64,000 bases of DNA from IMG/VR virus record IMGVR_UViG_2684623127_000007; one strand, written 5' to 3'. This stretch comes from a virus. Its lineage: Duplodnaviria > Heunggongvirae > Uroviricota > Caudoviricetes. Positions 9,001 to 15,000 of the stretch are shown here, in pieces. Position numbers: made by a program. Position 1 is the first letter of the stretch. Each line of letters starts with the position of its first letter.

Positions 9001-12000
9001 CTTGGCATCAACCTGAAATATCTAGGCCTATAGCAGATAAATCATCTACTAAAAATTGTATCTTAGACTCAACAACATGCAATGTAGATGGCTTTACAGT
9101 GTTTAACAGAAGATCCTGTAGTTTTGATATGCGTCCTCCCGGAAGCGCAGACAGAACTCCACAACTGAGGTTATCAATATCAGAAGTCGCATGGATGTCA
9201 AAAATAATAGAGACAGAGACAAATAATACAAACAAATCATAGCTATTAGCCCAGAAAAGAGTTGGTACACTAGCCATGAATAACTTCCTAACAACTTGAT
9301 TTTTTAGTTATTTTTTTCTTCATTCTTGAAAAAGGATGCCCCGAAAGGGTTCCAGAGTTCGATTTTCTGCGCTTCTGCAAATAATCAAGGGGTTACAAAG
9401 TGGTTGCCCCTTTGTTTTTAGTGCTCTTGGTATACCCATTGGTACATTTAGCGCAATACCATCTGGTATCACTTAAAGACACGAAAAACGTAAGCGTACA
9501 GCCTGAACCGTCTGGTCAGAATCTGACGAATTAGACAAAGTGGTGTCCACCAAATAAGTAGTGGGAACCAAAGTATCAGATATGCAGAAAAATGTGACTC
9601 CCGGCAGGCGAAAAGGCTGCCCTAATTATCCTCCCGAATTTAAACAGCAGCTCGTTGCTGCCTCCTGTGAACCCGGGATATCCATCTCAAAACTTGCTCT
9701 TGAAAATGGCATTAACGCCAATCTGTTGTTCAAATGGCGACAACAATGGCGCGAGGGAAAGCTGCTATTACCTTCTTCAGAGAGCCCCCAGCTACTTCCT
9801 GTGACTCTCGATGCAGCTGCCGAACAGCCAGAATCGCTCGCAGAGGACCCGGAAACCCTCAGTATCAGCTGTGAGGTAACGTTCCGGCACGGGACGCTCC
9901 GCTTCAATGGCAATGTCAGCGAAAAGCTCCTGACTCTGCTGATACAGGAACTGAAGCGATGATCCCGTTACCTTCCGGGACCAAAATTTGGCTGGTTGCC
10001 GGTATCACCGATATGAGAAATGGCTTCAACGGCCTGGCTGCGAAAGTACAAACGGCGCTGAAAGACGATCCCATGTCCGGCCATGTTTTCATTTTCCGGG
10101 GCCGCAGCGGCAGTCAGGTTAAACTGCTGTGGTCCACCGGTGACGGACTGTGCCTCCTGACCAAACGGCTGGAGCGTGGGCGCTTCGCCTGGCCGTCAGC
10201 CCGTGATGGCAAAGTGTTCCTTACGCAGGCGCAGCTGGCGATGCTGCTGGAAGGTATCGACTGGCGACAGCCTAAGCGGCTGCTGACCTCCCTGACCATG
10301 CTGTAAATCTCTTTATCCTGGTTGTCACAGAATAAGCCCGGTAAAATACGGGCTTATGAACGACATCTCTTCTGACGACATCTTCCTGCTGAAACAGCGC
10401 CTGGCCGAACAGGAAGCGCTGATCCACGCCCTGCAGGAAAAGCTGAGCAACCGGGAGCGCGAAATAGACCATCTGCAGGCGCAGCTGGATAAACTCCGCC
10501 GGATGAACTTCGGCAGTCGTTCCGAAAAAGTCTCCCGCCGTATCGCACAAATGGAAGCCGATCTGAACCGGCTTCAGAAAGAGAGCGATACGCTGACTGG
10601 TAGGGTGTATGACCCGGCAGTACAGCGTCCGTTGCGTCAGACCCGCACCCGTAAGCCGTTCCCTGAATCACTACCCCGTGACGAAAAGCGACTGTTGCCT
10701 GCGGCGCCGTGCTGCCCGAACTGCGGCGGTTCACTGAGCTATCTGGGCGAGGATACCGCCGAACAGCTGGAGTTGATGCGTAGCGCCTTCCGGGTTATCC
10801 GGACGGTACGGGAAAAACATGCCTGTACTCAGTGCGATGCCATCGTGCAGGCACCTGCACCTTCGCGGCCTATCGAGCGGGGTATCGCCGGACCGGGGCT
10901 GCTGGCCCGCGTGCTGACCTCGAAGTATGCAGAGCACACCCCGCTGTATCGCCAGTCAGAAATATACGGCCGGCAAGGTGTGGAGCTGAGGCGTTCACTG
11001 CTGTCGGGCTGGGTGGATGCATGCTGCCGGCTGCTGTCTCCGCTGGAAGAGGCGCTTCATGGCTATGTCATGACTGACGGCAAACTCCATGCCGATGATA
11101 CCCCGGTCCAGGTACTGCTGCCGGGTAATAAGAAGACGAAGACCGGGCGGTTGTGGGCGTATGTTCGTGATGACCGCAATGCAGGGTCAGCGTTGGCACC
11201 TGCAGTGTGGTTCGCTTACAGCCCGGACAGAAAAGGCATCCATCCGCAGACTCATCTTGCCTGCTTCAGCGGTGTGCTGCAAGCGGATGCGTACGCCGGG
11301 TTCAACGAGCTGTATCGCAATGGTGGGATAACGGAAGCTGCCTGCTGGGCTCATGCCCGCCGAAAGATCCACGATGTGCACGTCCGCATCCCGTCAGCAC
11401 TGACGGAAGAAGCCCTGGAGCAGATCGGTCAGTTGTACGCCATAGAGGCGGATATAAGGGGAATGCCGGCAGAGCAGCGGCTTGCTGAACGTCAGCGAAA
11501 AACGAAACCGTTGTTGAAATCCCTGGAAAGCTGGTTGCGTGAAAAGATGAAGACCCTGTCGCGACACTCAGAGTTGGCGAAGGCGTTCGCGTACGCACTT
11601 AACCAGTGGCCGGCACTGACGTACTATGCGAACGATGGCTGGGTGGAAATCGACAACAACATCGCTGAAAATGCCCTGCGGGCGGTCAGTCTGGGTCGTA
11701 AAAACTTCCTGTTCTTCGGCTCTGATCATGGTGGTGAGCGGGGAGCGCTACTGTACAGCCTGATCGGGACGTGCAAACTGAATGACGTGGATCCAGAAAG
11801 CTACCTTCGCCATGTGCTTGGCGTCATAGCAGACTGGCCGGTCAACCGGGTCAGCGAACTGCTTCCGTGGCGCATAGCACTGCCAGCTGAATAACACATC
11901 CCCGTCAATACGGCCCTCGCTGTACGCTTACCGAAAAACAACTTTTTATCTTTTTGTTTCGCTCAAATTAGTATAAAAAGCCGAACAACAAACAATAAAA

Positions 12001-15000
12001 AACCATTAACATCAATAGATTATGATGGCTTCAATCTAAATAATAGGCTATATAATACTGCAAGACACAACACATGCTGTCACTATGAGTCAACTATTTA
12101 GATGATATTAGTGACCTGTTTCAGAGCATTAGCGCAAGGCGATTCTTTGTCTTCTTGCACTAATTTTTTATCATAAAAATGTTCCTAGCACTGGGCATCA
12201 ATATCGCAGGTCAGAAAGAGCTCCTGGGGATGCGGCTGGCCGAAAATGAAGGGGCGAATTTCTGGTTCAATGTGCTGACTGAACTGAAAAACCGCGGTCT
12301 GAACGATATCCTCATCGCCTGTGTGTATGGCCTGAAAGAATTCCCGGAGGCCCGCATCCAGTTATGCATCGTGCATATGGTGCGCAACAGCATGCGCTTC
12401 GTGTCATGGAAGGAATACAAAGCCGTCACTCGCGACCTGAAAGCGATTAGCCTCCCACAGAAGAGGCAGGCCAGCAGGCACTGGAAGCGTTTGCTGCGGC
12501 CTGGGACTGCCGCTATCCGCAGATAAGCCGGTGCTAGCTGTCAAACTGGACTAACTTGGCGACGTTTTTCGCTTATCCGGCAGATATCCGCAAAGTGATC
12601 TACACAACGAACGCCATCGAGTCGCTGAACAGTGTGATCCGGCATGCCATCAGGAAACGCAAGGTGTTCCCGACGGACGAGTCAGTAAAAAAAGTGGTGT
12701 GGCTGGCAATCCAGGCCGCGTCACAGAAATGGACAATGCCGTTAAGGGACTGGCGAATGGCAATGAGCCGCTTTATTATCGAGTTTGGTGACCGTCTTGA
12801 CGGTCACTTTTAAGAAAAGGCATTTACACAGAATCCTAAACAGGCTCACAGGCCTCTAATCATCCACATTGTAAAGATCCTTTGTTGTAAGTAAGATCTG
12901 GTACCCTAATAATATCAAAAGGATTAAAATCATCACTGCATCCTTCCACGAGGCATTTCATTGCTCGTAGATCACCATATAGCTCTGAAGAGTGATGCGG
13001 ACATAGCAGATTATAAACTTTACATTTCGAATCTTCTTTGCCTTGTCTACTTTCCTCAATTTTTACTTTCAATGAATGCAGAAAAAAAAGATCCCTGATA
13101 TAACTATCCCTGTCCTCTATCGTCATTCCCGCCCTCAGCGCTCCGACAACCTCATCAGTATTTTCATTTCTCACCTCAAATACACTATTTCTCTTATCCA
13201 TCAGCCCACTTACAAAAGCACTTAGCTCTTGAAAAATTTCCTCAAGCTCATTATTATTTCTGGCACATGAATATATAGAGACCATAACATCAAGTTTATC
13301 TTGTAATTCAGGAGAAAGAAAGTGATTATGATTAAGCTCACTTACTGATTCCGGAGTCGAAGGGTTACCTCTTCCTGATACATACATCCATGAATAAAGA
13401 TTTGCTGAAGAACCACTTGTTGGTAACATATCAAAACCCCCTTAACAAATAAATCCATAAATATTATTGCAACTAATATATCTGGATAAAAATATTATAT
13501 CTTACTTAATACTACACTAATAAGATCCAGCTTTCCTCCGTGATAAGATTGCATGACTTGATGTTCACTCCATGAAATATCAGAAACATTATAAGATGAT
13601 ATATCTATTGGATTAAATTCATTTCTCATACGATCATATAAAACATTTGTTTCTGTTGTATCAACAAAAAGAATTCCTTTTTTCTCCAGTCTGTCAAACA
13701 TATCGTAAATAGCCTGTTCAGCTTGTGCTGGTAATGATGGAATATCCAAAAGAGATTCCCCATTTATTTTATTCATTCTAATACCAATAACATTTCCATT
13801 ATCATTATATATTTTCTCTGCACTCCCGGAACCATAATACTGATTGAAACAACGAACTTCGCTTGTCACCTCTTCATGGCTTTGAGATATAGTAAACATC
13901 TTCAACACTTTTGTTGTATCTTCCATATCTTCATACACGACAGCATTACCACCTTTACCAATAACATTACCTGGCACGGGTGATTTATTGTTGCTAACCC
14001 TCGGCAACTCTGATTGAGTATAATCCGCTGGAGGTAACTCCGGCTGCGCATAATCCACTGGAGGTAAATCAGGTCTGTTCGAATGAACAGAGCCTCTTTC
14101 TATAGTCGTGCTCACTGGCGATGTATTCAGCATAGCCTCAATTTTTCTGCTAATCTCTCCCTTAGGCCATCCCAACCTGTGCAACAGATTAGTAAAACAA
14201 CCACTATGACTTTCTCTTGTAACGCAAAACTTATTATCAGTGACCACAACACGATATGTTCTGTTGCCAACCGTTACTTGCGTCCCGCTATCAGAGTGAA
14301 CAGCAGCATCCCTTACAGAGGATAAAACACGATTATCAGGCGAAGTCAGGTTTCTGGTTAAAGAATTCCATGAACATCCCAAATTTATAGAAGAGGGCGA
14401 TAACATACATTTCAACCTTCAAAATAAACCTATCTAATTATTCCTAACAGACATCCCCCATACATGACAACAAAAACCGGAGCCGGACTCCGGTTTTTGT
14501 GAAGCTATCGGGTTACTTCATTTCGCCAATATTTTCCCACTTCCCGTCAGCACGCAGGATTTGCAGCGGTCTTACTACACACTGACCCGAGGACGAAAAA
14601 AGAGTTCGGGCTGGGAAGAGACAGAAGAGTAGCAATTTCAGAAGCATTCACACCAACATTGAGCTTTTCAGCGAAAGTGGGCACGAATCATTGCTGGACA
14701 GGGTTAAAGGCACTGACTCAATCACTCTTCATACGTGGCTTGATCGATATGAAACAATCCTCAGCTAGAGGGGGAGCAAGCCGAAAACATTACTCGACTA
14801 CGCCAGCAAAATCAGGGCAATTCGAAGAAAATTGCCGGACAAACCGCTCACTGACATATCAACGAAAGAGGTGGCAGCAATGCTAAACACCTACGTCGCA
14901 GAAGGTAAAGCGGTTTCCGCAAGAGTAATCAGGTCAACCCTTGTTGACGTTTTTCGAGGGGCAATAGCCGAGGGGCATGTGGCAACGAATCCAGTAACAA

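Follow-up and report, generated by a model that had tools for sequence, protein, structure and literature searches.

The effector locus of PPompW, the lambdoid prophage found at ompW, carries host-derived attachment (att) sequences that are 81-87% identical to the chromosome (PMC8112680). These attB-in-prophage (attB-in-PP) sites stem from yecE (attB-in-PP_1), from ykgJ/ecpE (_2) and from ompW (_3), and the mechanism of their capture has been left open (PMC8112680). The 21-bp attB-in-PP_1 holds phages encoding Shiga toxin 2 (Stx2) in strains PV15-279 and CFSAN004176 and in O145:H28 strains (PMC8112680); the same account makes no mention of ybhB, serT or sib. Here we describe att DNA of lambda/ybhB and serT type within a 64,000-nucleotide stretch (the window) of the Caudoviricetes record IMGVR_UViG_2684623127_000007 from IMG/VR. 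The segment 9255-12178, in the exchangeable effector locus (EEL) of an ompW prophage, is very probably non-functional recombination debris, made up of two juxtaposed, decayed att relics and one recent insertion sequence (IS).

The nearest structural relatives of the right-hand relic are the lambda-type attR sites, such as that of lambda-DE3 (kept in phage DN1) and that of the Sakai prophage Sp3, which is located between ybhC and ybhB. In these the order is host flank, B' arm, core, P arm with arm-type sites P2 and P1, sib hairpin and T-run. The same order is recovered in the window when the IS is taken out (9490-11939 deleted in silico), and 9451-9489 together with 11940-12178 is accordingly read as a lambda-type attR (P-O-B'), since the lambda convention puts sib on the far side of the P arm and B' towards bio. 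In a phage-database search the rebuilt sequence matches lambda 27529-27742, from sib through the P arm, and the match stops at the att core. It extends 63 bp further in two records in which attR is followed by ybhB-bioA, namely the bio-transducing phage DN1 and a Lederbergvirus record flanked by ybhB-bio. Aligned directly, the relic shows 233/288 identities (81%) to the DN1 attR and 228/282 (81%) to the Sp3 attR.

What continues past the lambda core is E. coli intergenic DNA from between ybhB and attB. Part 1 of this flank (9451-9489, + strand, aligned to K-12 and to the DN1 and Sp3 attR sites) starts in the loop of a hairpin located 16 nt past the ybhB stop codon. Part 2 (11940-11967, + strand, from the alignment) ends in the B' arm (GTTTCGCTCAAA, 11956-11967) and lacks 8 bp (ACCTTCCC) that every native site read, from four Escherichia/Shigella genomes or contigs, retains. 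The combined 67 bp, a variant flank with the sequence GACACGAAAAAC..., agree with K-12, from the ybhB hairpin loop to attB, at 60/67 aligned positions apart from the 8-bp deletion, which amounts to 80% identity to the chromosome with all columns counted and 90% without gaps. The native flank is found in 5,415 of 5,426 complete E. coli genomes, including K-12 with its unoccupied attB. Because it occurs at an unoccupied attB, the flank is host DNA and not a phage P' arm.

The core lies at 11968-11981 on the - strand. Its + strand, TTAGTATAAAAAGC, is the reverse complement of the 15-bp lambda common core GCTTTTTTATACTAA minus one A/T of the run, so that 14/15 bases survive; it is recognisable as a core, but probably recombination-incompetent. 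Beyond it, the lambda-type P arm (11982-12122, + strand) contains two arm-type Int sites, P2-like GTCACTAT at 12079-12086 and P1-like AGTGACCTG at 12110-12118, both collinear with P2 and P1 of lambda. Identity over this arm is 75-79% to lambda, 77% to Sp3, and 65-69% to another att junction of the window, at 15.6 kb, considered below.

The likeness to the attR sites of DE3 and Sp3 (81% over about 285 bp) is accompanied, for Sp3, by an effector locus containing an nleH gene and by tail-fibre genes beside attR. The differences are of position and of decay. The relic sits inside the ompW prophage rather than at ybhB, and its host flank, cut down to 67 bp, reaches only as far as the ybhB hairpin loop. 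One base has gone from the core and 8 bp from B', the sib stem contains a C.A mismatch, and the P arm resembles those of lambda and Sp3 at no more than 75-79%. The relic also has neither a matching attL nor an int. When the 64-kb window was searched by sequence, neither a partner attL nor a B arm from the ybhC side nor a lambda P' arm came up, and the only lambda-like int in the window (14586-15572) precedes a P'-O-P of its own with a different core. Lacking a partner attL and cognate int and xis genes, the element is filed as a relic and not as an active attR. A second useful comparison is with the lambda-bio and lambda-gal transducing phages, in which, as here, attR links phage DNA to bio-side host DNA; DN1, a natural lambda-bio phage, is the best database match of the relic outside enterohemorrhagic E. 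coli (EHEC). The relic differs from such phages in having 67 bp of host DNA without ybhB or bio genes, and in that its mechanism of capture is one we infer.

The left-hand relic has another closest relative. A search with 9235-9452 retrieves the tRNA-Ser gene serT of essentially every E. coli at about 80%, and gives a longer and better match (84%) in strain E2, which carries a lambdoid prophage with tccP2 and an espV fragment at serT, its int end ordered int, P' arm, tRNA fragment. (We take Sakai Sp4 to be integrated at serT as well.) By these alignments 9255-9447 is a phage-form (P'-O-P) att relic of a lambdoid phage that integrates at serT. Its P' arm remnant (9255-9323, + strand) has a TTGGTA arm-type-like repeat at 9262-9267. 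Over 9255-9304 it matches the stretch of the E2 prophage that separates the stop codon of int from the tRNA fragment (41/50, 82%, E 1e-10); about 52 bp of the E2 P' arm are missing from it. The core (O) is the degenerate 3' two-thirds of a tRNA-Ser (9324-9379, + strand), beginning at the anticodon loop CTTGAAAA, with 80% identity to K-12 serT and 84% to the serT::prophage junction of E2. ARAGORN calls no tRNA at the relic, its only calls in the window being tRNA-Arg and tRNA-Met at 45978-46210, and Rfam at E<=1 over 8000-17000 returns nothing; we assign 9324-9379 as an att core, not a tRNA gene. The P-arm side (9380-9447, + strand) has a terminator-like hairpin (AAGGGG at 9387-9392, CCCCTT at 9407-9412) followed by a T-run, then TTGGTA repeats at 9427-9432 and 9439-9444. 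It aligns up to 9444 with the effector-locus-side junction of E2 (102/122, 84%), and is nearer to that junction than to the native K-12 DNA downstream of serT.

What the relic and the E2 junctions share, at 82-84%, is a P' arm, the part of tRNA-Ser that begins with the anticodon loop, a variant of the terminator hairpin, and TTGGTA repeats. They differ in that the arms of the relic are contiguous, as in a phage, in that its tRNA is mutated and without its 5' third, in the missing 52 bp or so of P', and in the lack of an integrase gene. A tblastn search of 8000-9300 with the E2 integrase shows no remnant of a serT-type int, and no further serT pieces were found elsewhere in the window. The TTGGTA(Y)A repeats, one in the P' remnant and two in the P-arm remnant, occur at matching places in the E2 prophage; they are candidate arm-type binding sites of the E2-type integrase family. 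Immediately to the left, a 92-aa open reading frame (ORF) at 8964-9242 (+ strand) is named espO in PPompW GenBank records, is "hypothetical" to the Prokaryotic Genome Annotation Pipeline (PGAP), and belongs to no Pfam family; its stop codon, at 9242, falls 13 bp before the serT-type P' remnant.

The component kinds found here are all known: IS66 insertion, lambda attR with sib, tRNA-type attP, and host-derived att DNA in effector loci. The mosaic of a lambda attR and ybhB flank with a serT attP was not found described in the literature searched.

The IS that splits the lambda-type relic is an intact ISEc8 (IS66 family) of 2,442 bp at 9490-11931 on the + strand, identified from its inverted repeats, target duplication, Pfam domains and PGAP label. 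Its two terminal inverted repeats begin with GTAAGCGTACAGC, which they have in common (13/13). Three consecutive, uninterrupted ORFs on the + strand are tnpA (9582-9962; helix-turn-helix, HTH_Tnp_1, 1.6e-12), tnpB (9959-10306; IS66 Orf2, TnpB_IS66, 1.2e-38) and tnpC (10356-11894; the DDE IS66 transposase, DDE_Tnp_IS66, 2.1e-106), with the further domains zf-IS66, LZ_Tnp_IS66 and IS66_C. In strain TR01, whose left IS junction is 100% identical to that of the window, PGAP labels the product "IS66-like element ISEc8 family transposase" (WP_000998048.1). On the + strand, CGAAAAAC, duplicated as the 8-bp target site, is found at 9482-9489, as the last 8 bp of flank part 1, and again at 11932-11939. 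A sequence-only reading of this DNA had already seen a relic split here by a simple insertion with a perfect 8-bp duplication, and had the left copy right; its right copy, given as 11933-11940, was one base off.

Comparison of genomes settles the nature of this event. Among the 5,426 complete E. coli genomes, 223 have the uninterrupted rebuilt sequence with a single CGAAAAAC (99.9-100% over 1,051 bp), including the sorbitol-fermenting O157:H- strain 493/89, LSU61, and strains of O26, O103, O111 and O145. The occupied left junction is present in 291, those listed being O157:H7 or having a strain name without serotype; the junction query has about 7-14 matching places per O157 genome. The single copy in uninterrupted genomes and the flanking pair here prove simple ISEc8 transposition with an 8-bp target duplication, an ordinary event. 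The element shares its length, its tnpA-tnpB-tnpC order, its IS66 domains, its GTAAGCG... terminal repeats and its 8-bp duplication with the ISEc8 copies of E. coli O157:H7, and its only particularity is its position within a dead att site, inside the host-derived flank and 28 bp from the lambda core. At 9490 it makes a clean lineage marker that sets O157:H7 carriers apart from 493/89, LSU61 and non-O157 EHEC; hundreds of public genomes already have the insertion annotated.

At its right end the lambda-type relic closes with a sib/tI-like hairpin and T-run (12123-12178, + strand), the stem being 12128-12139 paired with 12154-12164 with one C.A mismatch, and the T-run 12165-12170. Identity is 91% to lambda sib and 89% to the copy at 15.8 kb, and the window has exactly two copies of AGAGCATTAGCGCAAGG, one at 12123 and the other at 15802. 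Homology to lambda stops at 12178, 8 bp past the T-run, where the C-terminal half of a frameshifted IS256-family transposase (12179-12813, + strand) truncates the relic. This fragment covers positions 184-281 and 320-377 of the 379 in the Pfam profile Transposase_mut, and PGAP calls it "IS256 family transposase, incomplete, missing N-terminus". Both the P-arm sequence ending in a sib/tI hairpin and the IS256 fragment adjoining it had been proposed from the sequence alone, and both are borne out. Upstream of the hairpin there is no int; host flank, ISEc8, the serT-type relic and espO stand there instead.

The relic might still work, either as a secondary att site for phages of lambda or serT type, or as a terminator or RNase III hairpin that controls read-through from espO or the IS. 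The surviving P1 and P2 sites and 14/15 core bases would suit such a role, as would the retention of the hairpin and six-T run on the + strand downstream of espO and tnpC, and phages do use other att copies of the same locus (PMC8112680). Even so, we consider a working element extremely unlikely. The hairpin folds at -17.3 kcal/mol (z -1.7), a level reached by 11/200 shuffles, compared with -24.5 kcal/mol (z -3.9) for lambda sib and -29.6 (z -5.2) for the 15.8-kb copy, the lower fold energy being due to the C.A mismatch in the stem; a generic terminator scan did not call it. The base lost from the lambda core lies in the T/A run of the overlap region, there is no B arm, and the tRNA-like core is degenerate. 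No phage occupies either relic core among the matches listed, from which no systematic screen was made, and 291 genomes have ISEc8 fixed at its place 28 bp from the core, without any hint of counter-selection.

The sequence-only reading, in which the two IS flanks together resemble the junction at 15600-15850, would make them the P' and P halves of a single attP/sib junction, a diverged paralogue of the one at 15573-15850. That junction has the phage order int'-P'-O-P-sib and runs collinear with lambda attP over 419 bp (71%); its core is not that of lambda, and it is itself read as a third, independent att module. When the IS-deleted sequence is compared with 15573-15860, one block does align, 12079-12174 with 15757-15852 (80/96, 83%; likewise 83% for 12079-12178 against 15757-15856), together with a 16-bp word (15/16; 9289-9304 with 15608-15623) whose score is reached by none of 300 shuffles; effector genes and tail-fibre sequence follow both copies as well. 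The rest does not follow. The word and the block are about 340 bp apart in the rebuilt sequence and 150 bp apart at 15.6 kb, so they are not collinear, and the roughly 250 bp between them show no alignment to the 15.6-kb junction. The word is above chance because of a fit to the integration host factor (IHF) consensus that is common to the H' positions of lambda, E2 and the 15.6-kb junction: the motif TAACAACTTGATT (9289-9301) fits the consensus YAANNNNTTGATW and occupies the H' position, as in lambda and at 15.6 kb. It belongs to the serT-type P' remnant, part of a different relic, and the break at 9448-9450 is about 150 bp to its right; TAACAACTTGATTTTT, the word cited in that reading, also lies in this remnant, within the 9255-9304 stretch that matches the E2 P' arm. 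The left motif CAACTTGAT, assigned there to the same junction, is likewise part of this unrelated serT-type relic, as an IHF-type P' site. The lambda-type relic, for its part, can be aligned with lambda-type attR, host flank included, over about 285 bp, three times as far; its core is that of lambda and not that of the 15.6-kb junction; and the DNA adjoining the IS on both sides is chromosomal ybhB-attB sequence. With only some 100 bp of distal P arm and sib plus one 16-bp word in common, the IS flanks do not make up a copy of the 15600-15850 junction. On this alignment a full paralogue was rejected; to the left of the lambda core there is host flank and not a P' arm, and descent of the two flanks from a single attP of this kind is very unlikely.

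The surroundings of the two relics suggest how they came together. In O157:H7 and other EHEC, the effector end of the lambdoid prophage at ompW (Sp9, or PPompW) has a sequence identical to the rebuilt one, and the ORFs around the relics encode EspM1, NleG, NleF, NleH1-2 and NleA. Leftward from the tail-fibre genes, the locus is built of stacked modules, each with a tail-fibre piece, effectors, sib and att in that order. The middle one runs from a 72-bp tail-fibre fragment through nleH1-2, nleF, the IS256 fragment, sib, P, O and B' to the ybhB flank, and Sp3 has the same layout where it adjoins ybhB (tail fibre, nleB/C/H1-1/D, sib, attR, ybhB). From this shared layout, the simplest history would begin with a prophage of lambda specificity at the chromosomal lambda attB. 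An Sp3-like, lambda-type prophage with a tail-fibre, nleH and nleF locus may have resided at that site (ybhC/ybhB), and the end bearing the effector locus, with attR and a little host DNA, may have been captured by imprecise, lambda-bio-like excision or by illegitimate recombination. At 9448-9450 the captured end would then have been linked to another lambdoid genome, through the P arm of a serT-type attP that this genome already carried, and tail-fibre gene exchange would later have stacked the captured module into the ompW prophage. Decay would have followed (the 1-bp loss from the core, the 8-bp loss at B', the mismatch in the sib stem, the broken tRNA), leaving relics that today probably have no role beyond that of neutral target DNA for ISEc8.

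The attB-in-PP sites offer another route to the same structure, namely a fossil of prophage-in-prophage integration. A lambda-type phage carrying nleF and nleH would have integrated through its Int into a host-derived B-O-B' copy in the effector locus of an ancestral prophage, and a later deletion from the tail-fibre gene to attL would have left attR, the B' flank and the effectors. The parallels are real: the same prophage and effector locus hold phage-used, host-derived attB copies of 100-309 bp at 81-87% identity (PMC8112680), and the relic, like them, has a short chromosome-like stretch beside its att core, roughly 80-90% identical to the chromosome, its flank (80% with all columns, 90% without gaps) lying in the same range. 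In addition, a foreign integrase gene (2521-3807) lies at the outer end of the locus, in sequence matching strains with described integration, and the 72-bp tail-fibre fragment is fused to the next module as a large internal deletion predicts. The described sites, on the other hand, are complete attBs used by incoming phages, while the relic is a half-site already joined to a P arm. Only its B' half is host-like, the other side being phage P arm, so a complete host-derived attB (B-O-B') is not found. The relic derives from ybhB and the lambda attB, and no phage is seen using it; only sites derived from yecE, ykgJ/ecpE and ompW are listed in PMC8112680. The 64-kb window has no B arm from the ybhC side and no remnant of a lambda-type attL or P'. 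Neither an occupied nor an unoccupied B-O-B' variant was seen among complete E. coli records, and the flank with the left segment and the attR segment occur, at at least 99%, in nearly equal numbers of them (539 and 537), giving no sign of an unoccupied site. This route also still requires an earlier, unexplained capture of host DNA, and on balance we hold it to be rather unlikely.

Several points weigh against the preferred account of debris captured from an end of a prophage at the lambda attB. The order of events and the route by which the host flank was captured are things we infer, and loss of function is deduced from sequence decay; the weakened hairpin and its T-run could still terminate some transcription. 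The assignment of the serT-type P' arm depends on 50 bp at 82% identity to one comparator prophage. No intermediate has come to light, all copies in the 5,426 complete E. coli genomes, in IMG/VR and in Joint Genome Institute (JGI) metagenomes being the same frozen mosaic; the four contigs from IMG/VR and the six from JGI metagenomes are all identical to the window bar one 1-bp difference in a T-run. In the genomes searched, identity to the relic never exceeds 90%, whether for native ybhB flanks or for lambda-type attR sites. A degenerate pattern for the flank, run against 185,579 species genomes, gave 5 matches (two E. coli, Shigella flexneri, Escherichia sp. and a "Bacillota" contig from a metagenome-assembled genome, MAG). 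The three that were read (Escherichia sp. E1V33, the MAG contig and one E. coli) all have the K-12-type flank and not the variant of the relic. The MAG contig, JAEWTL010000008.1 ("MAG: Bacillota bacterium", 2.5 kb), in which the end of an E. coli ybhB meets a sib-bearing attR of lambda type, is probably a mis-binned or contaminant Escherichia contig.

Nothing in the segment appears to work, so it carries little functional weight. Its value is as a modest historical record, in which the nleF and nleH1-2 cassettes would once have stood at the end of a lambda-specificity prophage at the lambda attB and moved from there with a scrap of host DNA attached, which supports accretion of the locus module by module through prophage-prophage recombination. 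We also entertain, tentatively and as something short of likely, the idea that the attR with its 67-bp flank is a preserved intermediate in the entry of host att-flank DNA into EHEC effector loci, whether by lambda-bio-like excision or as the fossil use of a fourth, lambda-type attB-in-prophage. By either route this would address the capture mechanism left open in PMC8112680, and would add lambda attB and serT to the att specificities stacked in the effector locus.

Some further features of the window were noted. The 72-bp tail-fibre C-terminal fragment (14513-14584, - strand; PGAP annotation from 493/89) lies between nleH1-2 and a truncated integrase, overlaps the annotated start of the latter by 7 bp, and marks the joint of two effector modules. 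That integrase opens the 15.6-kb junction: 14578-15860 comprises an N-terminally damaged lambda-like integrase and then a complete P'-O-P whose sib folds better than that of lambda. The identity of the damaged integrase to lambda Int, about 67%, is approximate, the query having been meant for no more than finding int-like ORFs.

Two ORFs of a different phage occupy the outer end of the effector locus: one is xis-like (2233-2487), and the other encodes an intact tyrosine integrase of 428 aa (2521-3807). Positions 1-4700 are 100% identical to E. coli NCCP 13914 and 99.4-99.7% identical to PV15-279, CFSAN004176 and O145:H28 strains, and this region seems to show prophage-in-prophage integration; strains 493/89 and TR01 have other arrangements over it. 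Farther to the right are the genes for tRNA-Arg(tct) and tRNA-Met (45978-46210, - strand). Near the right end of the window, a full-length integrase (62870-63997, + strand; 36% to lambda Int) is probably the ompW prophage's own int.

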